DNA of 64,000 nt from Dehalococcoidia bacterium (GTDB lineage: Bacteria; Chloroflexota; Dehalococcoidia; UBA2979), in assembly GCA_965200555.1 (NCBI GenBank), contig OZ241365.1, positions 1,768,442 through 1,832,441 of the forward strand, read 5' to 3'. Made by a program: the position numbers and the translations under genes. Shown one piece after another: positions 3,260 through 54,850 of this stretch. Each line of letters starts with the position of its first letter. Position 1 is the stretch's first letter. The notes beneath the pieces are model-generated. The model ran no database searches, was not told the origin of the DNA, and worked only from the letters and a program-made list of their open reading frames with translations.

Positions 3260-4081
3260 ATGATCGCGGCGGCGGGGGACGCATCGATGCTGACGCGCCG
3301 GATCGCACGCCGCTGGCTGCCGCGCCGGCTCCGGGCAGGGCTGGCGCGGACGCGTCGCGCCGTCCGCGACCGCCGCTCGGGCGTCGCCTTCGCCCTCGCG
3401 CGCGGCGAGCGCGCGGCCTTCCCCCACGCCTTCGAGGGCTACGGCCTGCCCGTCCTCGTCTACCCGGGGCAGGAGCGCCTCGCGGCGGGCAAACGCCGCA
3501 ACCAGCGCCTGATGGCGGAGGCGCTGGACGGGGCCGTGGCCGCGCCCGGCGAGGTGTTCTCGCTCTGGCGGCTGGCGGGGCGGCCCAGCGCGCGGCGCGG
3601 CTACCTCCCGGGCGCGGCGATCGTGAACGGGCGGCTCGTCGCCGAGACCGGCGGGGCCACCTGCCTGCTCTCCACCGTGCTCTACAACGCCGGCCTGCTG
3701 GCCGCCCTCGAGGTAGTGGAGCGGCACGCGCACTCGGTGGACAGCTACGGCGAGGCGCGCTACTTCGAGCCGGGCCGCGACGCGGCGATCGAGTACGGCG
3801 TGCTCGACCTGCGCTTCCGCAACCCCCACCCCTTCCCGGTGCTGCTCGCGATCGAGGCCGACGACGAGCGCGTCCGCGCCGCCTTCCGCGCCCCCGTCCC
3901 CGGCCTGCCGCGCGTCGGCATCGCCGTCGAGGGCGTCGCGGCGGACGGGCGCGGGATGCGCGCCCGCACCCTCCGCACGATCGACGCGGGCGGCGGCCCC
4001 CCGCGCGTCGAGGACCTCGGCTGGTCGCGCTACCTCGCGCCCGGCGACGCCCACTTCGCGGACGCCGCCGTCCGCGCGTGA
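3260..4081 (+). CDS. VanW family protein
   Basis: The translation contains the VanW-domain core ...GGATCLLSTVLYNAGLLAALEVVERHAHSVDSYGEARYFEPGRDAAIEYGVLDLRFRNPHPFPVLL.... Confidence 0.75.
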   Translation: MIAAAGDASMLTRRIARRWLPRRLRAGLARTRRAVRDRRSGVAFALARGERAAFPHAFEGYGLPVLVYPGQERLAAGKRRNQRLMAEALDGAVAAPGEVFSLWRLAGRPSARRGYLPGAAIVNGRLVAETGGATCLLSTVLYNAGLLAALEVVERHAHSVDSYGEARYFEPGRDAAIEYGVLDLRFRNPHPFPVLLAIEADDERVRAAFRAPVPGLPRVGIAVEGVAADGRGMRARTLRTIDAGGGPPRVEDLGWSRYLAPGDAHFADAAVRA

Positions 4082-4158
4082 CGCCCGCCCGCCGCCTCCG
4101 CGGCGGCGGCGTCGTCGGCGCTGACCCGCGGACGGCGGTGCTGTAATCTGCTCCGGCG

Positions 4159-4656
4159 ATGCCGATGCGAACTGTGGCTGCGGCACTGGTCGTCGTTCTC
4201 GTGGCGATGACCGCGCTGGCGTGCGAAGCGTCGCCGTCGGAACAGCCGGCGACCGCCGACAACGTGCCGGACACTGTGACGCCCGATCCCAGCCCGGCGC
4301 CCGCCCCGCAATCCTCGCCCGCCGCGACGCCCGAACCTGCGCTGTCGCCCACACCGGATGACGCGCCAGCGGCGACGACCGCAACGCCGGCAGCACCCGA
4401 AGTCCCGTCTGGCGGTGCGTCCGTCGCCGGCATAGCCGCCGGCTACGCCCACACGTGCGCTCTCGGCGAGAACGGAGCCGCAGTCTGCTGGGGCGCGGAC
4501 GACTTCGGCCAGTCTTCACCTCCTACGACGGGCGAGCGTTATGCCGCGATCGCCGCTGGCGGCTTCCATACCTGTGCTCTCCGACAAGACGGCACGGCCG
4601 TCTGCTGGGGCCGGAACGAATCCGATCAGGCGTCCCCTCCGCCACAGGGTCCGTAG
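4159..4656 (+). CDS. Small lipoprotein with two RCC1-like repeats (first unit of the tandem lipoprotein array)
   Basis: The signal peptide plus lipobox (LVAMTALAC) is followed by a Pro/Ala/Thr-rich linker. Two RCC1-type blades follow (GYAHTCALGENGAAVCWGADDFGQ / GGFHTCALRQDGTAVCWGRNESDQ). Downstream of the stop lies a remnant of the family tail repeat. Confidence 0.7.
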   Translation: MPMRTVAAALVVVLVAMTALACEASPSEQPATADNVPDTVTPDPSPAPAPQSSPAATPEPALSPTPDDAPAATTATPAAPEVPSGGASVAGIAAGYAHTCALGENGAAVCWGADDFGQSSPPTTGERYAAIAAGGFHTCALRQDGTAVCWGRNESDQASPPPQGP

Positions 4657-4664
4657 TCCGGGCG

Positions 4665-4725
4665 GTTCTGCCGACGCCGTGATTCGCATCGCGCGCAGCC
4701 TGCTGCATTCGGAGGGCGCGCCGTG
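4665..4725 (+). repeat. Orphan copy of the lipoprotein family 3' tail repeat (...gccgtgattcgcatcgcgcgcagcctgctgc...ggcgcgccgtgagg)
   Basis: In frame +2 it encodes ...SADAVIRIARSLLHSEGAP*, a homologue of the C-terminal tails of both LRR lipoproteins. It lies downstream of the RCC1 lipoprotein stop and directly before the next gene start. Confidence 0.65.
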
Positions 4726-6735
4726 AGGCGTATGCTCGCGGCGGGAGGCCGTCCGATGCGCCCTCGACGCCTCGCCACCGCCGTCGCGCTCCTCGCCGCG
4801 CTCGCGCTCGCCCTCGCCGCGTGCACCGGCAGCGGGCTGCCGCCCGCCGCCGCGCCCGAGGCGTCGCCGGCGGCCGAGGCGCCCTCGGCGCCCGCGCCCG
4901 CCTCGCCGCCGGAGCAGGCGTGCGCGAACGGCGTCGCGGTCGAGGAGACCGCCCCCGCCTCCGAGGGCGGCCCCTGCGTCCCCGCGCGCTACACGGCGGC
5001 CTGCTCGAAGGGCGTCGCGGTGCCGGACCCCGAGGCGAACCGCGGGCTGGTGCGCGACTGCGCGCTGCTGCTGCTCGCGCGCGACCCGCTGCGCGGGACG
5101 GCTCCGCTCAACTGGAGCGAGGACCTGCCGATCGGGGCGTGGGACGGACTCGGCTTCAACGGCGACCCGCCGCGGGTGGACGGCGTGCACCTCCGCGACC
5201 GCGGCCTCGACGGCGTCATCCCTCACTGGCTGGGCGGGCTGACGGAGCTGGTCTACCTGCACCTCGGGGCGCAGAACCACCCGACGGGGCCGATCCCGGC
5301 GGGCCTCGGCGGCCTGCGCGACCTGGCCGGGCTCCACCTCACCAACAACCGGCTGACCGGCGTCATTCCCGACCTCAGCGGCACGAACCTGTCGCGCCTC
5401 GACCTGCGCGGCAACGAGCTCACCGGCGGCGTGCCCGCGTGGCTGGGCGAGATGACGAACCTGCGCGTCCTGAACCTGCGCGGCAACGAGATCACGGGCG
5501 GCGTCCCCGCGCGGCTGGGCGAACTGACGAACCTGCGCGTCCTGAGCCTGCAGGACAACGAGCTGACGGGGCCGATCCCGCGCTCGATCGGCAGGCTGCC
5601 GCTGCTGCGCGAGGTGCGGCTGGCGCAGAACGAGCTGACGGGCTGCGTGCCGTCCCCGCTCGAGGACGTGGCGCCGTCCGGGCCGCGCAACGACGTGGCC
5701 GAGCTCGGCCTGCCGTGGTGCCTGCGCTACGCCCTCGACGCCACCGGCGCGGTCGCATCGGCCGGCCGCTGGGCGATCCTCGACGCCGGGGGCGGTGCGG
5801 ACGCGGGCGGCGGCGGCGTTTCGGGGCAGGCGGAGGCGCCGCCCGCGGTGATCACGACGTGGGAGGGGCTGCGCTCCGAGGCTGCCACGCTGCGCGTCCA
5901 CCAGACCGACGCCGCCGGCACGTCGTGGGCAGCCGAGTTCGGCGCCGTCTCCGAGGACGATCTCTTCGAGTGGCGCAAGGCGTCCGACTGCTGGGTGCGC
6001 TACCGCGTCACCGGCGATCCCGTGCGGCCCGCGGCAGGATCCGGGCGCTGGGAGTTCCCGGTCGAGTGGATGACCTATGCCGCCACCGGCGAGGGCTGCA
6101 CCGGCGCCGTCGGCGCCTCCGCCGTGCTCAGCGCCGACGAGTCCGTGCCCATGGTCATCCCCGCGACCGCGATCACCTCGCCGGTGCGGCACGGAATCGT
6201 GTTGCTCTCCCCCGAGAGCTGGGAGGGCGAAACGGAAACAAGTGAATGGCGCGAACCGCTGCCTACGTTTTCCGGGGGAGTGAACGGCGCCAGCGGGTCG
6301 AGCGCCGACGCCGCGCCCATCGAATTCGGTGTAACGGACAGCCTCGAAGAGGCACGCCGATTCCGGTATTGGCGCGACCCTGTGTTGCCTCCCGGCTGGA
6401 CATTCTTGGGGGTGGAAGCGGGCGGCCACAATGCCCCCTACTTCGGATACTGTGCCGGATGGACGGGAGTCTACGTGTGCGTGAAGGGTGGAGGGTGGCG
6501 TCCGTGGCATCTTTCGGCGAACCCGGTCCATGGTTTGGTCAGCGAGCCGCGCGTCATTGATGGACGCCCGGCGATCGTCCAGTATGCACTTGCGCCCCGG
6601 TATTATAGCGTGAGCGTCTGGATTTTCGACAGGGAAACGGGAATCGAGTATTCGGTAGTTGGCATTGATCATACCTTGCGTGACAGCAACACCGAGGCCG
6701 CGATCGCGATAGCGCGCAGCCTGCTGCCGGATTAG
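4723..6735 (+). CDS. Lipoprotein with 7 plant-type leucine-rich repeats, a conserved central module and a diverged C-terminal domain ending ...AIAIARSLLPD
   Basis: Signal peptide/lipobox (LALALAAC) and a P/A-rich linker are followed by tandem 24-aa LRRs (LxxLxLxxNxLTGxIPxxLGxLxx). The central block LPWCLRY...WEFPVEWMTYAATGEGCTGAVGA is about 90% identical to the downstream paralogue. The C-terminal domain has TGIEY and AIAIARSLLP motifs. Confidence 0.85.
   Translation: MRRMLAAGGRPMRPRRLATAVALLAALALALAACTGSGLPPAAAPEASPAAEAPSAPAPASPPEQACANGVAVEETAPASEGGPCVPARYTAACSKGVAVPDPEANRGLVRDCALLLLARDPLRGTAPLNWSEDLPIGAWDGLGFNGDPPRVDGVHLRDRGLDGVIPHWLGGLTELVYLHLGAQNHPTGPIPAGLGGLRDLAGLHLTNNRLTGVIPDLSGTNLSRLDLRGNELTGGVPAWLGEMTNLRVLNLRGNEITGGVPARLGELTNLRVLSLQDNELTGPIPRSIGRLPLLREVRLAQNELTGCVPSPLEDVAPSGPRNDVAELGLPWCLRYALDATGAVASAGRWAILDAGGGADAGGGGVSGQAEAPPAVITTWEGLRSEAATLRVHQTDAAGTSWAAEFGAVSEDDLFEWRKASDCWVRYRVTGDPVRPAAGSGRWEFPVEWMTYAATGEGCTGAVGASAVLSADESVPMVIPATAITSPVRHGIVLLSPESWEGETETSEWREPLPTFSGGVNGASGSSADAAPIEFGVTDSLEEARRFRYWRDPVLPPGWTFLGVEAGGHNAPYFGYCAGWTGVYVCVKGGGWRPWHLSANPVHGLVSEPRVIDGRPAIVQYALAPRYYSVSVWIFDRETGIEYSVVGIDHTLRDSNTEAAIAIARSLLPD
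5240..5660 (+). repeat. Tandem 72-bp coding repeats (7 LRR units) inside the LRR lipoprotein gene
   Basis: Periodic 24-aa LxxLxLxxNxLTGxIPxxLGxLxx units with matching 72-nt periodicity. Confidence 0.8.
5701..6125 (+). repeat. Conserved central module, copy 1 (about 90% identical to 7351..7730)
   Basis: The stretch LGLPWCLRY...WAILDAGG...TWEGLRSEAATLRVHQTDA.GTSWA.EFGAVSE.DLFEWRKASDCWVRY.VTG.PVRP..GSGRWEFPVEWMTYAATGEGCTGAVGA is shared almost verbatim at DNA level. Confidence 0.8.
6697..6732 (+). repeat. Family 3' tail repeat at the end of LRR lipoprotein 1 (AAIAIARSLLPD*)
   Basis: gcgatcgcgatagcgcgcagcctgctgcc is shared with the copies at about 4690 and about 8415. Confidence 0.65.
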
Positions 6736-6741
6736 CGAGCC

Positions 6742-8456
6742 ATGCGAAAGTTGTTCGCCACCGCCGCCGCGCTCCTCGCCGCGCTCGCCCTCGCCGCGTG
6801 CACCGGCGGCGGGCCGCCGCCCGCCGCCACGCCCGAGGCGACGCCGGCGGCCGAGGCGCCCTCGACGCCCGCGCCCACCGCCATCGCCACCGCCGAGGCG
6901 CCGCCGCTGCCCTCGCCCGCGCCGACGCCGGAGCCGCCGCCGGAGGTGGCGTGTGCGAACGGCGGCGCGGTCGAGGATCCCGAGGCGCGCCCCGGCCTCG
7001 TCGCCGACTGCGTGGCGCTGCTCGCGTCGAGGGATGCGCTGCGCGGCGAGGCGTCGCTCGACTGGGGCGGCGACCTCGCGATCGGGCGCTGGGAGGGCGT
7101 CGCCGTCGGCGGCGAGCCGCCGCGCGTCGTCCGCCTCGACTTGCGCGGCAAGGGACTCACGGGCGCGATCCCTCGCGGGCTGGGCGAGATGGAGAGGCTG
7201 AGCACCTGATCCTCGCGGACAACGCCTTGACGGGCGGCATCCCGCGCCCGATCGGCAGGCTGCCGCGGCTGCGCGAGGTGCGGCTGGCCGGCAACGCGCT
7301 GACGGGCTGCGTGCCCTCGGCGTTCGGGGACGCGAGGGGCGACGCCGCGTACCTCGGCCTCCCGTGGTGCCTGCGCTACGACCGCCTCGACGCCACCGGC
7401 GAGGTCGCCGAGGCGGGCGGCTGGGCGATCCTCGACGCGGGCGGCGAGGTCCTCGCGACGTGGGAGGGGCTGCGCTCCGAGGCGGCCACGCTGCGCGTCC
7501 ACCAGACCGACGCGGGCGGCACGTCGTGGGCGCCGGAGTTCGGCGCCGTCTCCGAGGGCGATCTCTTCGAGTGGCGCAAGGCGTCCGACTGCTGGGTGCG
7601 CTACCACGTCACGGGGCCGCCCGTGCGGCCCTCGGGGGGATCGGGGCGCTGGGAGTTCCCGGTCGAGTGGATGACCTACGCCGCCACCGGCGAGGGCTGC
7701 ACGGGCGCCGTCGGCGCGGCTACCGTGCTTGCCGCCGACGAGGCGCCGCCCGACGTCGTGCGGTCGCCCGATGTGGCGCGGCTCGGAGCGCCGGTGCGTC
7801 ACGGTCCGTTCCTGATGGTGCCGGTTGGCTGGACCGGCGCGATCGAACCGGAGGTCGAAGTCGCCGCGACGCCACCGGTGTTCAAGGTGCCCGAAGGCTC
7901 CGGTGCTTCGGTGTCCGCTGGCCAGTCCGGGGGCAGCGCAACTCCGGAATGGCCGGAGGGCTACCCTCACGCCTCCCAGCTCCGTAGCTACCAGATGCGA
8001 TTGGACGACACGGCGCCGGACTGGGGTATCTCTTCCCGCACGGCGAGTCTCGCCGAGATAAGGCAGCACCCGCTGTGGCGCGAGCCCGCGCTGCCATCGG
8101 GGTGGTACATGCACAAAGCCAAAGCTGTGCTACGGGGGTATGAAGCGCATTACGCGGACGACCAAGGCTTCGATGCGCTCAGAATCAGAATCTGGTGGCT
8201 CCCTTGGGAACCCTATACGGGGCACGTCATCGACCATCCTACGCGCATCCACGAACTGATCATCATTGACGGTCATCCGGCGAAGATTGAGTATGGTTCT
8301 TTGAACGTTGCTTATCCTCATGCGTATGTCACTATCTATGATAAGTCCACTGGCATCGAGTACGAGGTAACGGGAGAGAACGCAAGCCTGCGGGGCGATA
8401 TCGGCGCCGTGATCGCGATAGCGCGCAGCCTGCTGCCGCCGGCTGGCGCGCCGTGA
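6742..8456 (+). pseudogene. Frameshifted paralogue of the LRR lipoprotein (only about 2-3 LRRs; -1 frameshift at about 7205)
   Basis: The N-terminal ORF 6742..7209 (signal peptide, lipobox, linker, first LRR) stops at ...LGEMERLST*. The protein continues in the +2 frame (EHLILADNALTGGIP...) through the conserved central module and a C-terminal domain ending AVIAIARSLLPPAGAP. Adding one C at 'agcacctgatc' (to 'agcaccctgatc') restores a perfect LRR reading frame. Confidence 0.7.
7351..7730 (+). repeat. Conserved central module, copy 2
   Basis: See the 5701..6125 entry. Nucleotide identity is far higher than in the flanking LRR and C-terminal regions, consistent with gene conversion or recent duplication. 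Confidence 0.8.
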
Positions 8457-8458
8457 GG
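8403..8458 (+). repeat. Family 3' tail repeat at the end of the frameshifted paralogue (AVIAIARSLLPPAGAP*), including the shared ggcgcgccgtgagg post-stop motif
   Basis: Sequence identity with the copy at 4683-4719 extends through the stop codon into the downstream GTGAGG. Confidence 0.65.
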
Positions 8459-8545
8459 AGGCTCGCCCCCGCCGGGGCGCGGCCCGCCGGGGCCGTCGCG
8501 TGCTAGGATCGCGGGCGCGGCGCGGACGCCGCCGGGGAGGACGCC

Positions 8546-10000
8546 GTGATCCCGAGCCTGCGCGAGCGGTGCGGCGTGCTGGGCGTCTTCGCCCCCGGCG
8601 GGGACGTCGCCCGCCTCGCCTTCTTCGGGCTGCACTCGCTCCAGCACCGCGGCCAGGAGTCGGCCGGCATCGCCACGGCCGAGGCGGGCGCGCCCGACGC
8701 CGGCGTGCGCCGCTTCGCGCGGATGGGCCTCGTCACCCAGATCTTCGACGAGGGCTCGCTGCGCGCGCTCGGCGGCACCCACGCCATCGGCCACACCCGC
8801 TACTCGACCACCGGCGCGAGCGCCGAGGCCAACATGCAGCCGCTGGTCGTGGGCGGGCCGCACGGCGACCTCGCGCTCGCCCACAACGGCAACGTCGTCA
8901 ACGCCGACCTGCTGCGCGCGAACCTCGAGGAGCGCGGCGTCGCCTTCAGCGGCGGCACCGACTCCGAGGTGCTGGCGCGGCTGATCGCGCACGCGCCGGG
9001 CGAGACCTGGGAGGACCGCTTCGCCTACGCGATGCGGCGCGCCGACGGCGCCTACTCGCTGACGCTGCTGACCGGCGACGCGCTGTTCGGCCTGCGCGAC
9101 CCGCTCGGCATCCGCCCGCTCTGCCTCGGGCGGCTCGAGGGCGGCTGGGTGCTCGCCTCCGAGACCTGCGCGCTCGACACCCTCGGCGCGGAGTTCGTGC
9201 GCGAGCTCGGCCCCGGCGAGGTCGTGCGGATCGACGCGGGGGGGCCGCGCTCGCGGCGGCTCGGCGGCGACGGGGAGGCCTCGGCGCTGTGCCTGCTGGA
9301 GCACATCTACTTCGCGCGGCCCGACTCGCGGCTGCAGGGCGAGCTGCTGTACCCGGTGCGGATGCGGATGGGGGCGCGGCTGGCGCGCGAGCACCCCGCC
9401 GACGCCGACGTGGTGATCGGCATCCCCGACTCGGCGCTGGCCGCGGCCGTCGGCTACGCGGCGGAGTCCGGCATCCCCTACGTCGAGGGCCTCGTCAAGA
9501 ACCGCTACGTCGGGCGCACCTTCATCCAGCCCGACCAGCGGCTGCGCGACCGCGGCGTCGAGCTGAAGTTCAACCCGCTGCCGGAGCTGCTGGCGGACCG
9601 CCGCGTGGTGGTGGTGGACGACACGATCGTGCGCGGCACGACGACGCCGCGCGTGGTGGCGATGCTCCGCAAGGCGGGCGCGCGCGAGGTGCACATGCGG
9701 ATCACCTCGCCGCCGATCTCCCACCCCTGCTTCTACGGCGTGGACATGGCGACGCGCGGCGAGCTGATCGCCGCCCACATGGGGGTCGAGGCGATCCGCG
9801 AGCACATCGGCGCGGACTCGCTCGGCTACCTCTCGCTGGAGGACACCGTCGCCGCCACCGGCCAGGAGCGCGGGGACCTCTGCGCGGCCTGCTTCAGCGG
9901 CGAGTACCCCAGCGCCGTGCCGCTGCAGTTCGACAAGTTCGCGCTCGACGCCGGCGGCTCGCGCGACCGCCACGCGGTGCCCCTGCGCGCCGTCCGCTGA
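8546..10000 (+). CDS. purF: Amidophosphoribosyltransferase
   Basis: The N-terminal propeptide is followed by the catalytic Cys (RERCGVLGV), then the PRTase P-loop (VVVVDDTIVRGTT). Full-length similarity to PurF throughout. Confidence 0.95.
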   Translation: MIPSLRERCGVLGVFAPGGDVARLAFFGLHSLQHRGQESAGIATAEAGAPDAGVRRFARMGLVTQIFDEGSLRALGGTHAIGHTRYSTTGASAEANMQPLVVGGPHGDLALAHNGNVVNADLLRANLEERGVAFSGGTDSEVLARLIAHAPGETWEDRFAYAMRRADGAYSLTLLTGDALFGLRDPLGIRPLCLGRLEGGWVLASETCALDTLGAEFVRELGPGEVVRIDAGGPRSRRLGGDGEASALCLLEHIYFARPDSRLQGELLYPVRMRMGARLAREHPADADVVIGIPDSALAAAVGYAAESGIPYVEGLVKNRYVGRTFIQPDQRLRDRGVELKFNPLPELLADRRVVVVDDTIVRGTTTPRVVAMLRKAGAREVHMRITSPPISHPCFYGVDMATRGELIAAHMGVEAIREHIGADSLGYLSLEDTVAATGQERGDLCAACFSGEYPSAVPLQFDKFALDAGGSRDRHAVPLRAVR

Positions 10001-10007
10001 CGCCGAG

Positions 10008-11084
10008 GTGAGCGCCCTGCCCGACGCCCCTCCCGCCGCCGCCCGCTACGCCGCCGCCGGCGTCGACGTCGCGGCCGCCGAGGCCGGCCTGCCCGCGCTG
10101 CGCGCGCTCGCCGGGCGCGCGCGCCGCCCCGAGGTGATCGGCGGCGTCGGCGCCTTCGCCGGCCTCTTCCGCCTCGGCGCCTCGCGCTGGCGCGATCCGG
10201 TGCTCGTCGCCAGCGCCGACGGCGTCGGCACCAAGCTGCTCGTCGCAGCCGCCCTCGGACGCTACGGCGACGTCGGGCGCGACCTCGTGAACCACTGCGT
10301 CAACGACGTGCTGACCGCCGGCGCCGAGCCGCTGTTCTTCCTCGACTACCTCGCGACGGCGGGCCTGCCGCAGGAGCGGCGCGCCGAGATCGTCGCCGGC
10401 GTCGCCGAGGCCTGCGCGGCGAACGGCGCGGCGCTGCTCGGCGGCGAGACCGCCGACATGCCCGATCTCTACCGCCCCGGCGACTACGACCTCGCCGGCT
10501 TCCTCGTCGGCGCCGCGGAGCGCGAGGCGATCCTCGACGGCTCGCGCATCGAGGCCGGCGACGCGCTGATCGCGCTGCCCTCGACCGGCCTCCAGACCAA
10601 CGGCTACTCGCTCGTGCGCGAGATCTTCGGCGTGGCGAAGGGGCGCGGCGAGGCGCACGACCGCGCCGTGCTCGAACGGCGCGTCGAGGAGCTGGGAGGC
10701 ACGCTCGGCGACGCGCTGCTGGCGGTGCACGGCTCCTTCCTCGGGGCGGTGCGCCCGCTGCTGCCGCGGCTGCGCGGGATCGCGCACGTCACCGGCGGCG
10801 GGCTGCCCGGCAACCTGCCGCGCATCCTGCCCGACGGCCTCGCCGCCCGCGTCGACCTCGCGGGCTGGGAGCCGCCGCCGCTGTTCGGCCACATCCAGCG
10901 CGAGGGCGCCGTCGGCGACGGCGAGATGTTCCGCGTCTTCAACATGGGCGTCGGCATGGCGCTCGCCGCCGCGCCCGCCGACGCCGGCGCCGTGCTCGCC
11001 TCCGCGCCCGGCGCGTGGCGGCTCGGCGAGGTCGAGCCGCGGCCGGAGGGCGCGCCCGCCGTGCTCGGGCTGCCGGAGGACTGA
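10008..11084 (+). CDS. purM: Phosphoribosylformylglycinamidine cyclo-ligase (AIR synthetase)
   Basis: PurM motifs are present (GVGAFAGLF, DGVGTKL, NHCVNDVLTAGAEPLFFLDYLA, GGETADMP, HVTGGGL). Confidence 0.95.
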   Translation: MSALPDAPPAAARYAAAGVDVAAAEAGLPALRALAGRARRPEVIGGVGAFAGLFRLGASRWRDPVLVASADGVGTKLLVAAALGRYGDVGRDLVNHCVNDVLTAGAEPLFFLDYLATAGLPQERRAEIVAGVAEACAANGAALLGGETADMPDLYRPGDYDLAGFLVGAAEREAILDGSRIEAGDALIALPSTGLQTNGYSLVREIFGVAKGRGEAHDRAVLERRVEELGGTLGDALLAVHGSFLGAVRPLLPRLRGIAHVTGGGLPGNLPRILPDGLAARVDLAGWEPPPLFGHIQREGAVGDGEMFRVFNMGVGMALAAAPADAGAVLASAPGAWRLGEVEPRPEGAPAVLGLPED

Positions 11085-12649: not shown

Positions 12650-14839
12650 GTGCGGGGACGCATGAAGATCGGCGCGATCGCGGTGCTCGCGGCGGCGATG
12701 GCGATCGCGGCGGCGGCCGCGCTGCCCGGCCCCGCGCCCTCGGAGGCGCAGACCGCGGAGTCCGAGGCGCGCATCGCCGCTCGCCGCCTCGCCGACGGCC
12801 GCGTCGAGTTCGCGCTCCAGCGGCGCACCGCCTCGGGGTGGGGCGAGCGCATCCTGCCCGCGCGGCGCTTCTTCCCCGCCGCGGGCGGAAGCGGCTGGCT
12901 CCACTCCTCGCCCGTGACCGCGGGCGGCGCCGAAGCGCGCATCTCGGCGCGCCGCCTCGCGGACGGCCGCGTCGAGTTCGCGCTCCAGCCGCGCGGCGCC
13001 TCGGGGTGGGGCGAGCGCATCCTGCCGCGGCAACGCTTCTTCCCGGCCGCGGGTGGGGAGCGCTGGCTCAACTCGTCGCCGGTCACGCTTGAAGAGGCGG
13101 AGCCGTCCGCTGCACAAGATGTGCGCCGTTTCGGACCAGTCGCCGGGGACAACCCCGCGTGGTCCCCGGACGGACGGTGGATTGCTTTCACCTCGGATCG
13201 TGATGGAGACACCAAAGTCTATGTGATGAATGCCGATGGCTCGGACATGAGGCGCTTGACTGACTACACTGCTTCTGCTTGGAACGGACCACCGGCGTGG
13301 TCTCCGGACGGACAGCGGATAGCGTTCTCCTCGAACATCGGGATCGTCGTGATGAACGCCGACGGAACGAACGCAAGACGTTTGGGCGGAGCAGGCCGAC
13401 TGGCATGGTCTCCGGACGGGCAGCGAATTGCGTTCGTCCAGGACGATCCCCACCCAATGGTCTACCCTAGTCTTTATGTGATGAACGCCGACGGAACCGG
13501 CATAAAGCTTCTTTCCAATCTTATTAGTTGGCAGGGTCGCCCAGCGTGGTCGCCAGATGGCAGAATTACGTTCGTTTCGCGCCGCGATGGTGGGGACAGC
13601 GACATTTGGGTGGTGAACGCTGACGGGTCGGGCATGAGTCGCTTGACCGACGACTTCGGCTGGGACGGACAGCCGGAGTGGTCGCCGGACGGTCGGTGGC
13701 TCGCGTTCGCCTCCGATCGTGATGGTGATAGGGAATTGTATGTGATGAACGCCGATGGTACGAACGTGAGGCGTTTGACCGACAACGCTGTTTGGGACGG
13801 AGACCCGGCGTGGTCGCCGGACGGTCGACGGATTGCGTTCGCCTCCGGCCGTGATGGTGATGAGGAAGTGTATGTGATGAACGCCGACGGTACGGACGTG
13901 AGACGCTTGACCGACAACGATTGGAGAGACGGAGACCCGGCGTGGTCTCCGGACGGGCGGCGGATCGCATTCGCCTTGGATCACGAAGACGGTCGGGCAA
14001 TCTACGTGACGAGCGCCGAGGCGCCAGCTCTTAGCTCTTTCACGCGGCTGACCGGCAACTCCTTCGCTGAGAGGGGCTTGGCGTGGTCGCCGGACGGGCA
14101 GCAGCTCGCGTTCGCGTCCAATCGTGATGGCGACTGGGAAGTCTACACGATGGACGCCGACGGTTCGGACGTGAGGCGCTTGACCGACAACGCCGTTCAG
14201 GATGCAGAGCCTGCGTGGTCGCCGGACGGGCAACAGATCGCGTTCACCTCCGACCGTGATGGTGACTGGGAGGTGTATGCGATGAATGCCGACGGCTCGA
14301 ACGTGAGGCCCTTGACCGATCACTCTGGCGACGATGTGGCGTCGGCATGGTCGCCGGACGGGCAGCGGATTGCGTTCGCTTCCGACCGTGATGGCGACTG
14401 GGAAATCTTTGTGATGAACGCCAACGGGACAAAGGTGAAGCGCGCGACTCACTCCTTCGCATGGGACACGGCTCCGACATGGTCGCCGACTGGACATCGA
14501 ATTGCGTTCATCTCGAATCGCGATGGAGATGCCGATATCTATGTAATGAATGCCGACGGCTCCCGCGTGAGGAACTTGACCAACAACGCCGTCGCCGATG
14601 CCTATCCGGTATGGTCTCCGGATGGACGTTCGATTGCCTTCTCTTCGAGACTCGATGGAGATTCCGACCGCGAAAGAGATTGGGAGCTCTATGTGATGAA
14701 CGCCGACGGTTCGGAGATAAGGCGTCTGACCGACAACCTCTCCGATGAGTGGGACCCGGCGTGGTCGCCGGACGGGAAGCTGATCGCGTTCGCCTCCGAT
14801 CGCGACGGCGACCTCGACATCTACGTGATCGAGCCTTAG
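12650..14839 (+). CDS. Secreted TolB-like PD40 beta-propeller repeat protein with an N-terminal tandem-duplicated ~55-aa module of unknown function
   Basis: Signal peptide, then 2x (RI[AS]ARRLADGRVEFAL...GWGERILP..RFFPAAGG..WL.SSPVT). About 13 PD40-type units follow (WSPDG.[RQ]IAF.S.RDGD.E[VI]Y[VA]MNADG[ST]..RRLTDN). The repeat region is visibly lower in GC than its surroundings. Confidence 0.85.
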   Translation: MRGRMKIGAIAVLAAAMAIAAAAALPGPAPSEAQTAESEARIAARRLADGRVEFALQRRTASGWGERILPARRFFPAAGGSGWLHSSPVTAGGAEARISARRLADGRVEFALQPRGASGWGERILPRQRFFPAAGGERWLNSSPVTLEEAEPSAAQDVRRFGPVAGDNPAWSPDGRWIAFTSDRDGDTKVYVMNADGSDMRRLTDYTASAWNGPPAWSPDGQRIAFSSNIGIVVMNADGTNARRLGGAGRLAWSPDGQRIAFVQDDPHPMVYPSLYVMNADGTGIKLLSNLISWQGRPAWSPDGRITFVSRRDGGDSDIWVVNADGSGMSRLTDDFGWDGQPEWSPDGRWLAFASDRDGDRELYVMNADGTNVRRLTDNAVWDGDPAWSPDGRRIAFASGRDGDEEVYVMNADGTDVRRLTDNDWRDGDPAWSPDGRRIAFALDHEDGRAIYVTSAEAPALSSFTRLTGNSFAERGLAWSPDGQQLAFASNRDGDWEVYTMDADGSDVRRLTDNAVQDAEPAWSPDGQQIAFTSDRDGDWEVYAMNADGSNVRPLTDHSGDDVASAWSPDGQRIAFASDRDGDWEIFVMNANGTKVKRATHSFAWDTAPTWSPTGHRIAFISNRDGDADIYVMNADGSRVRNLTNNAVADAYPVWSPDGRSIAFSSRLDGDSDRERDWELYVMNADGSEIRRLTDNLSDEWDPAWSPDGKLIAFASDRDGDLDIYVIEP
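12760..13090 (+). repeat. Tandem duplication (2 x about 165 bp) encoding the 'RIxARRLADGRVEFAL' module in the PD40 protein
   Basis: Two consecutive about 55-aa units with about 75% amino-acid identity. Confidence 0.7.
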
Positions 14840-25317: not shown

Positions 25318-26688
25318 TCAGCAGGGCGGGAGATCGTCGGTTAGGACATCCCCTTTATCCAGCGCGCGGGGGAGGCAGCCGGTCAACTCGTTCCCGCTGA
25401 GCCATAGCGTCTCAAGGTTCGCCAAGCCGCCGAGTTCGGGCGGGATGCCGCCGCTCAGATCGTTGTCGCGGAGCCTCAAAGACCGCAGGTTCGCCAAGCC
25501 GTCGAGTTCGGGCGGGATGCTGCCAGTCAACCCGTTCCCGCTGAGGCCCAAATACTCCAGGTTCGCCAAGCCGCCGAGTTCGGGCGGGATGCTGCCGCTC
25601 AACTCGTTCAAATCGAGCTGCAACAGCCACAGGTTCGCCAAGCGGCCGAGTTCGGGCGGGATGCTCCCGCTCAACTCGTTCCCGTCGAGCCACAACTGCC
25701 GCAGGTTCGCCAAGCGGCCGAGTTCGGGCGGGATGCTGCCGCTCAACTCGTTCCCGCCGAGCCACAACTGCCGCAGGTTCGCCAAGCGGCCGAGTTCGGG
25801 CGGGATGCTGCCAGTCAACTCGTTATAACCGAGATGCAAAGCCTGCAGGTTCGCCAAGCAGCCGAGTTCGGGAGGGATGCTGCCAGTCAACTCGTTATAA
25901 TCGAGATGCAAAGCCTGCAGGTTCGCCAAGCGGCCGAGTTCGGGCGGGATGCTGCCGCTCAACCCGTTAAAGTCGAGGCCCAGACCGGTGACGCGGGGCG
26001 GCGATCCCCCGATCGTGACGCCTTCCCACTGGTCCATCGGCGTCGCGACGCTCCAATTCGGCACTCTGCCGTCGCCCGCGAGGACGTCGCGGACGGCGAG
26101 CAGCGTCTCGCGGTCCGCGGCCAGCCCCGGGTTGCGGTCCGGCTCCGCCACCGCGCCGCCCGGGCACGACGCCCGAGGCGCCGGCGCCGGCGCCGCCGCC
26201 GAGGGGGACGTGGCGGTCGGCGCGCCCTCGCCGGGAGCGCTTGCGCCGACGAACACCGGCGACGATCGGAGCCATCTGCCTCGGCTGCCCGCCGGGAAGT
26301 AGCGGGAGGACGGCAGGACGCGGTCGCCCCACTCGCCGTCCGTTCCGCGCTCGCTCAACGCGAACTCGATGCGCCCGTCGCCGAGGCGGCGCGCCTCGAT
26401 CCGGACCGTTGGGGCGGGAGCGCTTGCGCCGACGGACACCGGCGACGATCGGAGCCATCTGCCTCGGCTGCCCGCCGGGAAGTAGCGGGAGGACGGCAGG
26501 ATGCGGTCGCCCCACTCGCCGTCCGTTCCGCGCTCGCTCAACGCGAACTCGACGCGCCCGTCGTCGAGGCGGCGCGCCTCGATCCGCACCTCGACGCCAC
26601 TGTTCTGCGCCGCCGCCAGCCCGATGCCGAGGGCGGCGACTGCGCCGAGCAGCACCGCCAGCAGTCCTGCGGTCTTCCCGTTCGCCAT
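25318..26688 (-). CDS. Secreted LRR protein A: signal peptide + 2x 'RIEARRL' module + about 8 plant-type LRRs, ending ...GCLPRALDKGDVLTDDLPPC
   Basis: The probable start is MANGKTAGLLAVLLGAVAALGIGLAAAQ (ATG at 26688 preceded by GGAGG; the listed ORF start at 26796 is an extension). The tandem ~55-aa modules are followed by 24-aa LRRs (LSGSIPPELGRLANLxxLxLxxNE). Confidence 0.85.
   Translation of the reverse strand: MANGKTAGLLAVLLGAVAALGIGLAAAQNSGVEVRIEARRLDDGRVEFALSERGTDGEWGDRILPSSRYFPAGSRGRWLRSSPVSVGASAPAPTVRIEARRLGDGRIEFALSERGTDGEWGDRVLPSSRYFPAGSRGRWLRSSPVFVGASAPGEGAPTATSPSAAAPAPAPRASCPGGAVAEPDRNPGLAADRETLLAVRDVLAGDGRVPNWSVATPMDQWEGVTIGGSPPRVTGLGLDFNGLSGSIPPELGRLANLQALHLDYNELTGSIPPELGCLANLQALHLGYNELTGSIPPELGRLANLRQLWLGGNELSGSIPPELGRLANLRQLWLDGNELSGSIPPELGRLANLWLLQLDLNELSGSIPPELGGLANLEYLGLSGNGLTGSIPPELDGLANLRSLRLRDNDLSGGIPPELGGLANLETLWLSGNELTGCLPRALDKGDVLTDDLPPC
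25330..25940 (-). repeat. Tandem 72-bp LRR coding repeats (about 8 units) in LRR-A
   Basis: Near-identical 72-nt units are visible directly in the sequence (e.g. ...ggcgggatgctgccgctcaactcgtt...caggttcgccaagcggccgagttcggg...). Confidence 0.85.
26268..26601 (-). repeat. Tandem duplication (2 x about 165 bp) encoding the 'RIEARRL' module in LRR-A
   Basis: The two units are nearly identical at DNA level (...gtcgccccactcgccgtccgttccgcgctcgctcaacgcgaactcga...). Confidence 0.85.
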
Positions 26689-26722
26689 GAGGGTGCCTCC
26701 TTGCGGCGCAGGCAGGGGTGAC

Positions 26723-26817
26723 CGCTCTCCGCAAGAGGCCAGTACCGGCGCAGGGCCGCAAGGAGGCGCGAAGCCCCTGCTTGCGTGCTGCGCCATGATC
26801 GGGCTCTTGCGGAGAGC
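26723..26817. repeat. 14-15 bp perfect inverted repeat (cgctctccgcaagag ... ctcttgcggagagc) enclosing about 65 nt in the LRR-A 5' region
   Basis: Arms at 26723-26737 and 26804-26817. It lies within or upstream of the LRR-A 5'UTR. A partially homologous sequence precedes LRR-B. Confidence 0.5.
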
Positions 26818-30943: not shown

Positions 30944-32202
30944 TGCCGGTCATGGACCTCGGCGACTGGCTCGACGAGCAGATGGAGATCGCGCTGGCCC
31001 CCATGCTGCTTCAGGACGCCGCCGCCGAACACGGCGTGCTCTGGTATGCCAAACGGCTGTCCGCCAACGACACGCAGGCCACAGGGGGCCACCAGGCTGG
31101 CTTCTACATCCCGAAGCGGATCGCATTCCTGCTTATCCCGTCGCTGCACCAGCCCTCCGAACTGAACCCCCGGGTCGAGTTCGAAATGCTGGTCGACAGT
31201 CACCCCGAGGCACGAGAAGTCCGCGCCATCTGGTACAACAAAAAACTCCACGGCGGCACTAACGATGAAGTGAGGGTGACGGGCCTCGGCGGGGCTTCGC
31301 GTTCGCCGCTACTGGACCCGGCTTTGACTGGCGCACTGGCAGTGTTCGCGTTCCATCAAGGAACGCCGCCGAAAGGACTTGTGTGCCATGTCTGGGTCTG
31401 TGAGCACGACACCGAAGCCGATCTCATCGAAGAACGTATCGGACCAGTCGAAACGGGACAGGGGCGACTATGGCCCGATCTCCTCGCTCCGCTCAATCAG
31501 CCGGGCAGGTGCTGGCTTGAACCGGATGAACTCCCCAGAACCTGGCTCGATAACTATCCCACGGGCGAGGAAGTGCTCAGAAAGGTATTGGAGCTCCGGC
31601 CGGAGCGTTCGGCCAGTGCGGATGCCCGTCTCTCGCGTCGTCGTGATTGCGAGGAGGCGCTGTTCTACAGCATCGAGAATGCCATAGAGTTTCCGAGAAT
31701 ACGCGAGCGGTTCTGGAGTTTCGACAGCTTCGGTGAAATCATCGATCACATGATGCCGAGCATTCAGAGGCGCAGATCGCGCTCGGGCAACTCGCTCCAG
31801 CTCCAGATCCGCGAGATTTTCAGAGAGGAAGGATTGGATGAGGGAACTGACTTCTCCTACCAGCCGATTTCGGAGCGGAGAAACCGCCCGGACTTCCTCT
31901 TTCCGAGCGTAGCTGCCTACCGCGATCAGAAATACCCACAGGACCGGCTCCGGATGCTGGCTGTCAAAACCTCGTTGCGCGACCGCTGGCGGCAAGTGCT
32001 CAGGGAGGCCGACCGCATTGGGAAGAAGCACCTGCTCACGCTGGACACAGCAGTTACCGAGGAACTGCTGAACGATATCGATCAAGCGGACATCCAACTA
32101 GTCGTGCCTCGGTCACTGCATCGGAAGTACCCTGATTCGGCTCGGGCGACGCTACAGACGGTGGAGGAATTCATCGGCGAGGTGCGCGCCCTTGCGGGCT
32201 AG
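30943..32202 (+). CDS. Putative type II restriction endonuclease (EcoRII-like: N-terminal B3-like DNA-binding domain + C-terminal catalytic domain)
   Basis: The ATG overlaps the vsr stop (TAATG). The N-terminal LSANDTQATGGHQAGFYIPK resembles the EcoRII-N effector domain. 419 aa. Markedly lower GC than the surrounding genome. Its position next to Dcm+Vsr fits a CCWGG-type R-M module. Confidence 0.6.
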   Translation: MPVMDLGDWLDEQMEIALAPMLLQDAAAEHGVLWYAKRLSANDTQATGGHQAGFYIPKRIAFLLIPSLHQPSELNPRVEFEMLVDSHPEAREVRAIWYNKKLHGGTNDEVRVTGLGGASRSPLLDPALTGALAVFAFHQGTPPKGLVCHVWVCEHDTEADLIEERIGPVETGQGRLWPDLLAPLNQPGRCWLEPDELPRTWLDNYPTGEEVLRKVLELRPERSASADARLSRRRDCEEALFYSIENAIEFPRIRERFWSFDSFGEIIDHMMPSIQRRRSRSGNSLQLQIREIFREEGLDEGTDFSYQPISERRNRPDFLFPSVAAYRDQKYPQDRLRMLAVKTSLRDRWRQVLREADRIGKKHLLTLDTAVTEELLNDIDQADIQLVVPRSLHRKYPDSARATLQTVEEFIGEVRALAG

Positions 32203-35309: not shown

Positions 35310-35732
35310 TCAGCCGTCGTCGAGCGCGGTCAGCACCTCGACGCCGAGGGCGCGCGCCACGGCGCAGGCGTTCCGGTCGTGCGACATGTACGGCACGCCG
35401 TGCTCGGCCGCGTGGGCGATGATCCAGAGGTCGTTGTCGCCGACCCGCGCCAACCTCAACTCGCGCCGCCGTACGCGCGCGCGGTTGTACCAGGTGGATG
35501 TCGCCTCCACGGCGGGAAGGCGAACGCATTCCCGGTACAGCGCCTCAAGCCGTGCCATCCGTTGCTCCCCCCAATTCCTGCCCGCCAGTTCCGTTTCGGC
35601 AAAGTAAGACAATGCGATCACGCGCTCCCCCAACAGTTCGCGGTAGCGCCTGCCGTGTTGGCTTTGCAAGGTGAAATAGGAGAGTACGGGGGTGTCCACC
35701 ACAACATAGGTGAGAGCACGTCCAGCGGTCAT
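35310..35732 (-). CDS. PIN-domain ribonuclease toxin (VapC-like)
   Basis: N-terminal VVDTPVL... with conserved acidic residues across the domain (..ETE.., ..DNDLWIIAHA..). 140 aa. Its start overlaps the upstream gene by 4 nt. Confidence 0.7.
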   Translation of the reverse strand: MTAGRALTYVVVDTPVLSYFTLQSQHGRRYRELLGERVIALSYFAETELAGRNWGEQRMARLEALYRECVRLPAVEATSTWYNRARVRRRELRLARVGDNDLWIIAHAAEHGVPYMSHDRNACAVARALGVEVLTALDDG

Positions 35733-36667
35733 CGCAACCGTCCCTCATGAATCTCTTGCCGAAAGGCCTCCGCCTCTTCCTCCGTCTCCCAGAGGCCGGA
35801 CAGAAGCGCGAAGTAGTCCGGGGGCGGGCGAAGCAAAAGGCCTTGTTCCCGCGCCAGTTCATCGATCGACTTCGGAGGCAGTTCCACGCCTCGCTCTTCG
35901 GGTTCGAGCAGGCGGATGAGTCCTACTACCCGCTCTGCGATAGTGTCGCCGACGATTGCTTCACTGACATGCAGCTCGGCAAGTTGACCCAGAACAGAGG
36001 GCAGCTCGTGGCGCACGTCCTCTTCGACTGACATAACGATGTTCGAGTCATCCGCGAGCTTGAGGCGCAGACGCTGCCTTCCGGCCTCGACATCGGCCAT
36101 GTACACGTGGCCGAACATGACACGTTGTCGAATCTCAGGTACGGGTTCTTCCTGCAGGGAGAAGTTGGCCGTTAGCGGGATGTGAGCACTGATCTCTTCT
36201 CCGGCTGGCGGATGGTGCACGACTTCGGCGTAATTTCCGATCCTGGCGGCAGATCGCACGAGGCGTTCCACTGCCCGTCGGCGTCCAATTCCCTGAGGGG
36301 TGTACGCCTCATTCCTTGCGTACATTTCCATCTCTTCGACGAGTGTTCGCGTGACGGCCGTCGGCGTGACCTCTTCGTCCCACTGCAACATGCCCTGCTG
36401 ACCGACAGCCGTCGGCGGCTCCGCGAATGCGATATTGACGCTGCCCGGAGACACGGAAGCCACGCGCAAACCGGCCAGCGACAGCTCAAGCGGGTTCAGC
36501 GGGCCGCGCCGGGGTCCCAAGGCAAGCTTCTCATCGGCGATCACGCGGGCGGCTCCGGCGATGTCCTGCAGCAGCTGGCCGAGGGCGCGGGCATCGACGC
36601 CCGCGTCCATGTCGCCATCCACCCGGAACAGCAGCCACGGCCGCCCTGCGGTGCTGTCAGTCGTCAT
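35729..36667 (-). CDS. 312-aa protein of unknown function, translationally coupled upstream partner of the PIN toxin (candidate atypical antitoxin/regulator)
   Basis: Protein-like ORF in a lower-GC patch. It ends ...ELPPKSIDELAREQGLLLRPPPDYFALLSGLWETEEEAEAFRQEIHEGRLR and overlaps the PIN gene start (ATGA). No HTH/RHH/AbrB-type antitoxin motif is recognisable. Confidence 0.5.
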   Translation of the reverse strand: MTTDSTAGRPWLLFRVDGDMDAGVDARALGQLLQDIAGAARVIADEKLALGPRRGPLNPLELSLAGLRVASVSPGSVNIAFAEPPTAVGQQGMLQWDEEVTPTAVTRTLVEEMEMYARNEAYTPQGIGRRRAVERLVRSAARIGNYAEVVHHPPAGEEISAHIPLTANFSLQEEPVPEIRQRVMFGHVYMADVEAGRQRLRLKLADDSNIVMSVEEDVRHELPSVLGQLAELHVSEAIVGDTIAERVVGLIRLLEPEERGVELPPKSIDELAREQGLLLRPPPDYFALLSGLWETEEEAEAFRQEIHEGRLR

Positions 36668-50668: not shown

Positions 50669-51460
50669 ATGACGCACGCCGACGCCGCGCCCGACGCACC
50701 CGCCGCCGCTGCGCCCGGCGCCCTCGCCGGGCGCAAGGCGCTCGTCGTCGGCGTGGAGACGGCGGCGGGGGGCGCGATCGCCTCGGCGCTCGGCGCGGCG
50801 GGGGCCGATGTGGCGCTGGCCGTGCTGCGGCCCGACGAGGGCGTGCTGGCGGCGCGCCGCATCCAGCGCGAGCTGCGCGCGCTGGGCCGCGCGGCCTACA
50901 CCTACGCGCTGGACGCGACGCTCGGCCAGAACGCGAAGGTCACGACGCGGCAGGTGGCGAAGGAGCTGGGCGGCCTCGACCTCGTGGTCAGCGCCGCCGA
51001 CGCGCCGCTGGCCGGCCCGCTCGCGCGCACCTCGGAGGCGCAGCTGGGGCAGGCGATGGCGCTCAACTGCCACGCCCACGCCTGGGTCGCGCGCGCCGCC
51101 TTCGACGAGTTCCGCCGCGGCGGGCGCGGCTGCCTGCTGATCGTCACGCACGTGCTCGGCGAGCGGCCCGCGCCCGGCGCGGGCGCCTACGCGCTCGCCT
51201 GCGCCGCCGCGATCGGCCTCGGACGCGCGCTCGCCGCCGAGCACGCCGCGCCCGGCCTCGCCGCCGTCACGCTGCTGCGGGGGGCCGCCGCGTTCGACCC
51301 CTCGGCCGTCGCCGCCGACGGCGGCGGCCTCGAGGCCGCGATCGCGGGCGCCGACGCCGCCGAGGCCCCGGCGCTCGCCCGCCTCGCCACGGAGGCCGCC
51401 GCCAGCCCGCCCGAGGCGGTGACGGGCCGCGTGCTCTCCGCCGCCGCGGACGCGCCGTGA
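50669..51460 (+). CDS. SDR-like Rossmann-fold protein with degenerate glycine motif (possibly non-catalytic)
   Basis: LAGRKALVVGVETAAGGAIASALGAAGADVALAV resembles the SDR N-terminus but lacks a clean TGxxxGIG and YxxxK. Its stop overlaps the GTG of the next gene (GTGA). Confidence 0.5.
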   Translation: MTHADAAPDAPAAAAPGALAGRKALVVGVETAAGGAIASALGAAGADVALAVLRPDEGVLAARRIQRELRALGRAAYTYALDATLGQNAKVTTRQVAKELGGLDLVVSAADAPLAGPLARTSEAQLGQAMALNCHAHAWVARAAFDEFRRGGRGCLLIVTHVLGERPAPGAGAYALACAAAIGLGRALAAEHAAPGLAAVTLLRGAAAFDPSAVAADGGGLEAAIAGADAAEAPALARLATEAAASPPEAVTGRVLSAAADAP

Positions 51461-54750: not shown

Positions 54751-54850
54751 CGCGCCGGCCCGCTTCCGGCGGGCGGAGGGCGTCGCGGGTGCGGGAGGCG
54801 CGCGCGGTGAACGGCGACGGTCCGCGACGGGCGGCGGGAGGCGGCGCGCC

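Follow-up and report, generated by a model that had tools for sequence, protein, structure and literature searches.

A putative surface lipoprotein family with a conserved front and divergent C-terminal cassettes in a GC-rich Dehalococcoidia bacterium

Why do neighbouring genes of a single bacterium form a mosaic in which nearly identical segments alternate with segments that have little in common? The question is raised by positions 4159-8456 of a 64,000-nucleotide stretch of the Dehalococcoidia bacterium assembly GCA_965200555.1 (contig OZ241365.1, positions 1,768,442 to 1,832,441; hereafter the window), which has a GC content of about 75%. Three open reading frames (ORFs), here called genes 1 to 3, lie on one strand between a VanW-like gene (3260-4081) and purF/purM (8546-11084). 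A sequence-only reading of the window, made without database searches, had described them as modular lipoproteins with swappable heads, a gene-converted central module, and diverged C-terminal domains. The analysis reported here indicates that genes 2 and 3 probably represent a lineage-restricted, multi-copy family of surface lipoproteins, receptors or adhesins whose evolution involves duplication in tandem, gene conversion of individual segments, and the exchange of cassettes. As predicted from the sequences, a family protein carries a signal for lipid anchoring and a long stalk of Pro/Ala/Thr; a head may be present, and a module of two domains is the part by which the family is defined.

Gene 2 (4756-6735, plus strand) is the sole intact family member in the array. 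It encodes 659 residues from the ATG at 4756, the frame also being open from an upstream GTG at 4723, and its N-terminus, MRPRRLATAVALLAALALALAAC, contains a canonical lipobox (...LALAAC23, with Cys23 at 4822-4824). The signal peptide and linker are followed by a plant-type leucine-rich repeat (LRR) N-cap, seven LRRs (approximately 5005-5700), the central domain, a variable segment, and a conserved tail. The LRRs are 24 residues long, produce a 72-nucleotide period at 5383-5564, and were recognised by Pfam LRR_1 (E 1.9e-16, 57.1 bits, cut-off 20.6) and LRR_8 (57.8 bits, cut-off 27). The central domain (5707-6123, plus strand) is a small beta domain with an invariant Cys pair, predicted to be extracytoplasmic, and the motifs LFEWRKA.DCWVRY.V and W.YAATG.GC.G; its GC content at third codon positions (GC3) is 0.93. 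The variable cassette (6200-6690, plus strand; GC3 about 0.70-0.81) comprises the variable loop and most of the C-terminal alpha/beta domain. Beyond it lies a conserved 3' arm (6693-6880, plus strand) that runs from the tail AIAIARSLLPD and the stop codon across 6 nucleotides of spacer into gene 3, whose start, signal peptide, and linker it includes; a junction of the same type occurs at locus L061 in another assembly.

Gene 3 (6742-8456, plus strand) begins with MRKLFATAAALLAALALAAC, which holds a canonical lipobox (...LALAAC20), and carries three LRRs. It is divided between two frames: 6742-7209 is read in one frame, which stops at 7207-7209, and the protein continues in the frame of the ORF 6798-8456. 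The frameshift is a 1-nucleotide deletion within LRR2 at 7205-7206 (plus strand), where one C is missing from a CCC run, because the L062 gene of another assembly, which is 88% identical, reads CCC there (GAGCACCCTGATC in L062 and GAGCACCTGATC in the window; ACCCTG versus ACCTG). Restoration of CCC yields ERLSTLIL and a repaired protein of 571 residues, for which Pfam LRR_1 scored 23.4 bits. A database protein of 409 residues (P0045), whose label names an NCBI/ENA contig of 2,490,836 bp, coincides exactly with what gene 3 encodes beyond the frameshift, and the lesion is therefore present in the deposited assembly. The central domain of gene 3 (7359-7724, plus strand) has a GC3 of 0.98. Its variable cassette (7800-8400, plus strand) has a loop 45 residues longer and a GC3 of 0.68-0.80.

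When genes 2 and 3 were compared, their 5' ends were 94% identical in DNA over 4803-4902 versus 6780-6879 and 95% identical over 4772-4812 versus 6755-6795, in line with the N-terminal DNA homology that had been read from the letters. The central modules, put at about 90% nucleotide identity in that reading, are 90% identical over 300 nucleotides (5844-6143 versus 7445-7744) and 89.6% identical over 122 aligned codons. The C-terminal domains, described there as about 35% identical and lower in GC, are 46% identical in nucleotides and about one third identical in protein, with a GC content of 0.57-0.63 versus 0.73-0.83 elsewhere in the two genes. Synonymous divergence (dS) amounted to 0.11-0.22 for the signal and central parts, and in the tail it had reached saturation. 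Because third positions are nearly always G or C, raw synonymous distances mislead, and codon identity at identical residues was therefore compared with the expectation from codon usage. The same codon was found at 34 of 35 identical residues in the signal peptide and linker (expected 0.58, p = 1.4e-7), at 82 of 97 in the central module (expected 0.65, p = 1.5e-5), and at 35 of 44 in the last LRRs (expected 0.67, p = 0.05). There was no excess in the LRR N-cap (17/33, expected 0.65), and codon use in the C-terminal domain was random (12/35, expected 0.38). By this measure the pair is truly mosaic, with its most recent shared history at the 5' end and not in the central module. The gene-converted central module proposed earlier is not special to this pair: about 20 paralogs average 87% identity in that domain, its same-codon excess is moderate, and the excess is strongest in the signal and linker.

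These figures might also be expected of ordinary tandem paralogs under unequal constraint, with the front held by purifying selection and codon bias, tails that have drifted, and a low GC3 due to relaxed codon selection. Codon bias alone predicts same-codon use of 0.63-0.65, and the LRR N-cap is at that level (0.52); moreover, two of the three units are broken and the GC3 of gene 1 is also low. Nevertheless, this explanation is unlikely, because it does not account for the same-codon excess of the signal/linker and central parts, and because the tails keep their motifs, a confident predicted fold, and a ratio of nonsynonymous to synonymous divergence (dN/dS) of 0.42. The comparison of many family members, given below, also argues against it.

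The combination of a conserved front and a diverged tail is family-wide and not peculiar to genes 2 and 3. Central and tail identities were uncorrelated among 106 members (r = 0.13, 5565 pairs). Among the 261 pairs with central domains at least 90% identical, 155 have tails no more than 40% identical, and the median tail identity is 0.39, the family background. The 20 paralogs from the window's genome have a mean identity of 0.87 in the central domain and 0.39 in the tail, and tail identity exceeds 0.6 in 4 of 190 pairs. For most tail types a closely similar tail (0.82-0.97 identity) exists in another assembly, and some cross-assembly pairs are more similar in the tail than in the central domain (0.97 versus 0.87; 0.94 versus 0.90). 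In the DNA, the L059 gene is 86% identical to window positions 4946-6194 and unrelated beyond 6194. The L062 gene is 88% identical to the whole of gene 3, including the tail, although it lies at a different locus; in the gene next to it, the front corresponds to that of gene 3 (92%) and the tail is a different one. Such a sharp breakpoint, the lack of correlation, and the pairs in which the tail is the more similar part are all difficult to attribute to unequal constraint.

The limits of the exchanged segment can be read from the same comparisons. Positions 4700-6190 and 6690-7790 were matched in DNA by all eight related genes, the gene 2 cassette (6200-6690) by none of the eight, and the gene 3 cassette (7800-8400) by one, the L062 gene (88%). 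No second copy of either cassette was found within the 64-kb window. Each cassette measures about 500-600 nucleotides. The shared sequence upstream of it extends over about 1.4 kb and closes with PVRHG, and downstream of it come the ARSLL tail, the junction, and the signal and linker of the next gene. All paralogs resemble one another in the front of the gene as far as PVRHG, and again from roughly the last 10 codons across the junction into the beginning of the following gene. The related assemblies differ in array size, in genomic position, and in the C-terminal domain, which supports the mosaic reading of the array.

Divergence confined to one segment with a sharp boundary would also be produced by localised AT-biased hypermutation of the C-terminal domain, through a diversity-generating retroelement or another targeted mutator, and the low GC3 of the tail would suit an AT-biased mutational input. 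In the closest pair, gene 3 and the L062 gene, dS was 0.17 in the central domain and 0.35 in the tail, the tail value being two to three times that of the front (0.12-0.17), which such a mutator would explain. For the same pair, dN/dS was 0.42 in the tail, compared with 0.16 in the central domain, and no whole-domain sign of positive selection was detected. The tails are constrained and not decaying. Hypermutation is in our view very doubtful, given that tail types recur at the high identities noted above in other assemblies, sometimes above the central domain, and that near-identical central pairs have tails at background with no continuum between. Furthermore, the differences include many indels and all base types over 130-200 residues, unlike the adenine-specific variation of diversity-generating retroelements, and no template repeat was present within the 64-kb window, in which a reverse transcriptase was not exhaustively searched for. 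A retroelement target was rejected as a candidate on these same observations. Because the same tail types recur elsewhere at up to 97% identity, the tails are taken to be old, maintained specificities that form a stable repertoire and not a rapidly varying one. The comparison of the array with diversifying surface-protein or polymorphic cassette families can therefore be kept as regards mosaic, cassette-like lipoproteins, while the word diversifying overstates the pace.

In the mechanism that we favour, gene conversion among paralogs would homogenise the conserved arms, and these would act as homology arms for the exchange of cassettes. That arms are converted and cassettes exchanged through them is suggested by the layout and by the discordances between central domains and tails. 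The chassis may contact a common partner or an envelope structure, or may serve as an anchor. We infer that the proteins function as receptors or adhesins. Ligand specificity would reside in the C-terminal domain, alone or together with an LRR head. Each cell might then display about 20 binding specificities, most likely directed toward a host (probably a sponge) or toward other extracellular molecules.

A further property of the cassettes is their base composition. Housekeeping genes in the window have a GC3 of 0.98-1.00 (1.00 over 484 codons in purF, 8546-9997). Genes 2 and 3 run at 0.93-1.0 through the central domain; the value drops to about 0.80 within the loop and to 0.68-0.70 within the tail. 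The lower GC noted for the C-terminal domains is real and lies at synonymous sites. The drop was also found in six more genes from three other loci, and among 53 distant loci the mean GC3 is 0.92 in the central domain versus 0.79 in the tail, the difference being positive in 49 of them (Wilcoxon p = 9e-10). It is seen in the intact genes of more than 30 genomes, which is a further argument against unequal constraint. Amino-acid composition is not the cause, since four-fold degenerate sites alone show the drop (GC 0.94 in the front versus 0.69 in the tail), and expression level cannot explain it because both halves of the gene share one transcript. The candidate preferred here as the most likely is GC-biased gene conversion (gBGC), which would act on the arms and spare the cassettes, these being unique; recombination and GC3 have been linked in bacteria (PMC4450053). 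The other candidates are a foreign origin of the cassettes and local AT-biased mutation, the latter being argued against by the stability of cassette types.

A foreign origin would mean that the cassettes are recent imports from lower-GC donors that were recombined into a resident chassis. The GC3 of the cassettes (0.63-0.75) indeed resembles values seen in further window genes of atypical composition, for example 0.76 in a PD40 propeller gene, and family genes do occupy different loci in different assemblies. However, the module was found only in GC-rich Dehalococcoidia-type genomes, whose tails show the same relative drop, and neither a donor-like close homolog nor a low-GC donor lineage was found, the nearest relatives among GTDB representatives being 26-47% identical. 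Recent import is accordingly judged decidedly unlikely. A bolder form of the favoured reading holds that some 20 anciently diverged, trans-specifically maintained binding domains are carried on a conversion-homogenised chassis, that uncultured Dehalococcoidia symbionts would use them to sense the host or the environment, and that the GC3 cliff is the footprint of gBGC or of AT-biased targeted diversification. As a whole this combination seems improbable. If it were true with gBGC, bacterial gBGC could be tested in this family with a control that nature supplies inside each gene.

Several points weigh against the interpretation as receptors or adhesins shaped by conversion and cassette exchange. 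A GC3 near 1 inflates synonymous similarity, and the same-codon excess of the central module is moderate (0.85 versus 0.65), so that part of the conversion signal is purifying selection and codon bias. Orthologous cassettes could in principle still recombine between strains, which weakens the argument for a role of gBGC. Paralog counts per genome were taken from the contig labels of database proteins and not from the genome sequence itself, and the sponge habitat was deduced from the names of metagenome-assembled genomes (MAGs) only.

The identity of the module was examined by profile and structure comparison. Pfam and NCBIfam scans of the three proteins returned LRR and RCC1 only, and a PDB sequence-profile search returned only plant LRR ectodomains, via the head. 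The AlphaFold model of the central and C-terminal module contains two domains (predicted local distance difference test score 88.5, predicted template-modelling score 0.86), for which Foldseek found nothing in PDB below E 0.04. A profile search with the C-terminal domain alone yielded 15 unnamed short proteins and linked it to no annotated family. The C-terminal domain has 8-14% sequence identity to envelope lipoprotein and sensor domains of the Mog1/PsbP-like and RseB/LolA-like folds (LpqN 6e5d, PknH sensor 4esq, Dip2269 3v7b, and RseB 2v42), a possible resemblance in fold class for which neither Foldseek nor sequence profiles gave a link. Both domains are, for practical purposes, undescribed, as the failure to recognise either of them in the sequence-only reading had suggested.

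All tails are homologous, as they align over their full length, share motifs, and have one predicted fold. This bears on whether the array could be a polymorphic toxin-like system, that is, a conserved delivery part with a variable C-terminal toxin and downstream orphan modules. Such a system would present a conserved front, a variable C-terminus of lower GC, and truncated relics beside full genes, all of which occur here. It would not be expected to have tails of a single homologous fold or lipid-anchor signals, no toxin or secretion domain was matched, and there is no immunity-sized ORF between the units, the gaps being 6 nucleotides or overlapping codons. We regard a toxin system as highly improbable.

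The family can be recognised by the motif RY.xLDATGE...LFEWRxxxDCWVRYxV...W.YA..GC.G followed by WRDPxLPxGW...IDGxPA...TGxxY...AIAIARSL, all of which genes 2 and 3 carry. A search with the central and C-terminal region found 169 unnamed homologs, with no Pfam domains other than LRR or FN3 in the head. An exhaustive scan of 1.84 billion protein representatives placed the module in 374 clusters, many with 2-6 modules per protein and with LRR arrays or FN3 as the extra domains; database proteins of 1000-1900 residues have up to six modules. At least 19 listed clusters, in addition to genes 2 and 3, are labelled with the same 2,490,836-bp contig. The lipobox motif is shared by most homologs. Among GTDB representative genomes there are 58 loci, nearly all in MAGs of Dehalococcoidia or Tepidiformaceae, at 26-47% identity and a locus GC of 0.62-0.73, often with modules in a row; the best of these is 41% identical over the whole module, the species of the window being absent from that genome set. 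More distant Dehalococcoidia (L008, L012, L032, and others) have up to 4-5 modules on one strand at a spacing of about 1 kb. A literature search found no paper describing the family.

The heads of family proteins are LRR arrays of 2-7 or more repeats or FN3, and other members have no head or several modules in a row, the modules being arranged in tandem within ORFs or as tandem genes. Genes 2 and 3 both have 24-residue LRRs of the plant-specific type with an N-terminal cap, and the family profile matches the cap and first repeats of the ectodomains of the plant LRR receptor-like kinases ERL1/2, TDR, and FLS2 (E down to 7.8e-11). Arrays of 2-3 genes lie in unrelated housekeeping neighbourhoods in other assemblies: L060 has three genes between an ABC transporter and yceD/rpmF, L061 has two genes adjoining rnpA/yidC, and the L062 genes adjoin men genes. 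Some MAG names (SB06xx_bin, COS3_bin, and APA_bin) may correspond to published sponge MAG sets. The sponge species of those sets are listed in PMC8163846.

The head counts proposed earlier for the array, 2 RCC1 blades, 7 LRRs, and 2-3 LRRs, were recovered as two blades, seven LRRs, and three LRRs. Swappable heads are supported in the form of LRR arrays of varying length, FN3, or no head. An RCC1 head is not, as no intact protein combining RCC1 with the module was present among the homologs and a search with gene 1 gave only short RCC1 fragments. Gene 1 (4159-4656, plus strand; 165 residues) has the N-terminus MPMRTVAAALVVVLVAMTALAC, comprising a signal peptide, a lipobox Cys (Cys22 at 4222-4224), and a Pro/Ala/Thr linker, followed by two RCC1 blades and an abrupt stop. 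Its lipobox, ...TALAC22, satisfies only the broader PROSITE pattern (PS51257). Pfam RCC1_2 scored 72.4 bits, and the RCC1-like domain model scored 48 bits (cut-off 150); the seven-bladed propeller of RCC1-like proteins is represented by two blades before the stop. The GC3 of gene 1 is 0.745. It had no DNA match to the eight family genes, its signal peptide is unrelated to that of the family, and it has none of the family module motifs.

These motifs do occur in an adjoining out-of-frame relic (4661-4726, plus strand) in which 21 codons from the end of a family C-terminal domain survive (GGSADAVIRIARSLLHSEGAP, followed by a stop codon). It is 81% identical in DNA to 8402-8458, and its TGA (4724-4726) shares nucleotides with the GTG at 4723, an arrangement also found at junctions between intact family genes. 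Gene 1 is probably a deletion remnant and at most a putative member of the family. We lean to the view that it was an independent RCC1 lipoprotein gene, which a deletion joined to the 21 final codons of a family gene otherwise lost; that it is an RCC1-headed family member lacking its middle is a less favoured possibility. The window also contains a full-length RCC1 lipoprotein of 652 residues (51457-53415, plus strand) with a long C-terminal domain, which is 40-47% identical to the blades of gene 1. Relatives of gene 1 in the databases (P0121, P0124, and P0132) are short RCC1-repeat proteins ending in Arg-rich tails that appear out of frame, and RCC1 genes may often be truncated or mis-assembled in the organisms that carry them.

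A second relic (8453-8506, plus strand) immediately follows gene 3, ahead of purF. It is 18 codons long (VRRLAPAGARPAGAVAC, then a stop) and derives from the start of another family gene. Its GTG overlaps the TGA of gene 3, and its first seven codons, VRRLAPA, match the start of P0025/L060b (MRRLAPA). Two stereotyped junctions were observed between units. One is an overlap of stop and start codons, GTGA or ATGA (4723-4726 and 8453-8456 in the window; 10001-10004 and 11437-11440 in L060), and the other consists of TAG, 6 nucleotides, and ATG (6733-6744 in the window; 5207-5218 in L061). Both point to translational coupling and to tandem duplication in units whose boundaries are fixed. Given the gene 1 stump, the gene 3 frameshift, and the two relics, the array appears to be one live gene, gene 2, with decayed units on both sides. 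Of the three same-strand lipoprotein genes described at the outset, the signal peptide, lipobox Cys, and linker are present in all, and gene 2 alone is intact. More generally, arrays arise by tandem duplication with overlapping stop and start codons and decay by deletion and frameshift, as in two of the three units here. Lipid modification at these Sec/signal peptidase II lipoboxes is predicted. A promoter and terminator scan of 3900-8700 gave no usable result.

Other parts of the window are recorded for orientation. Most window genes have a GC3 of at least 0.94, and a minority of genes or segments are at 0.6-0.8. The PD40 gene (12650-14836, plus strand) is a 729-residue ORF with 12 PD40 (TolB-like beta-propeller) repeats and forms a low-GC island (GC 0.58-0.65, GC3 0.76). 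Further islands (GC 0.59-0.64) are located at 2001-2400, 31201-32000, and 35601-36400, and the ORF 35732-36667 (minus strand) encodes a plausible protein of 312 residues without a Pfam match. Two LRR paralogs (25318-26796, minus strand; 53581-54621, plus strand) carry 4-9 LRRs of the plant type together with an N-cap resembling the one in genes 2 and 3, lack the central/C-terminal module, and contain two repeats of about 55 residues each (VRIEARRL.DGR.EFALSERG.DGEWGDR.LPSSRYFPAGSRG.WLRSSPV). ARAGORN predicted a tRNA-His at 54820-54910 (91 nucleotides, unusually long for a bacterial tRNA), for which there was no Rfam match at the gathering threshold; Rfam had no match anywhere in the window.

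The two-domain module is absent from domain databases, and because none of them names it, surveys of eukaryote-like symbiosis factors based on Pfam repeats would miss it. About 20 copies of about 1.5 kb amount to more than 1% of a 2.5-Mb genome. A conserved chassis with a stable repertoire would provide candidate binding specificities of an uncultured lineage for host-symbiont or substrate recognition. In addition, the within-gene GC3 drop, repeated in dozens of genomes with housekeeping genes at nearly 100% GC in third positions, separates recombination-linked from expression-linked effects on base composition and bears on what drives extreme GC in bacteria.

Several known systems resemble the family in part. 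The variable surface lipoproteins of Borrelia and Mycoplasma belong to multigene families that undergo gene conversion and often include pseudogenes, with 5' parts that are conserved and exposed parts that vary. The present family is likewise a lipoprotein multigene family with a conserved 5' part, a variable part, and pseudogenes. It differs from cassette-based antigenic variation in that every unit has its own start and signal peptide, with no silent-cassette expression site, and in that cassette types are stable across assemblies. Phase-variable contingency genes were also considered, and no long simple-sequence tracts were found in the array; the CCC tract of gene 3 is too short for frequent slippage. 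Polymorphic toxins (CdiA-CT and Rhs) share a conserved N-terminal part, a sharply bounded variable C-terminus of lower GC, and truncated copies nearby, but the variable domains here are homologous and are accompanied by no immunity gene, secretion-apparatus domain, or toxin fold.

The closest functional analogy is offered by the internalins of Listeria, which have 22-residue LRRs, an immunoglobulin-like inter-repeat domain, and LPXTG or GW anchoring. Similarities include surface attachment, an N-cap, a number of LRRs that varies among paralogs, a conserved domain fused to the C-terminus of the LRRs, variable C-terminal regions, and many paralogs per genome, often in recombining tandem clusters. 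In contrast to internalins, the proteins described here have a lipobox anchor, plant-type 24-residue LRRs, and a central domain without an immunoglobulin-like match, and the NCBIfam models internalin_A, internalin_H, and inl_like scored 17.7-19.1 bits where their cut-offs are 1050-1600, and matched nothing but the LRRs. Eukaryote-like repeat proteins (LRR, FN3, ankyrin, and WD40) are enriched in sponge-associated MAGs (PMC8163846), and LRR and FN3 heads occur in this family, while the window holds other LRR, RCC1, and PD40 proteins; the family differs in being defined by an unannotated two-domain module and not by its repeat head. It is an unannotated variant among the known types of paralogous surface-lipoprotein or LRR-adhesin families, and its unusual feature is the family-wide GC3 cliff within the gene.

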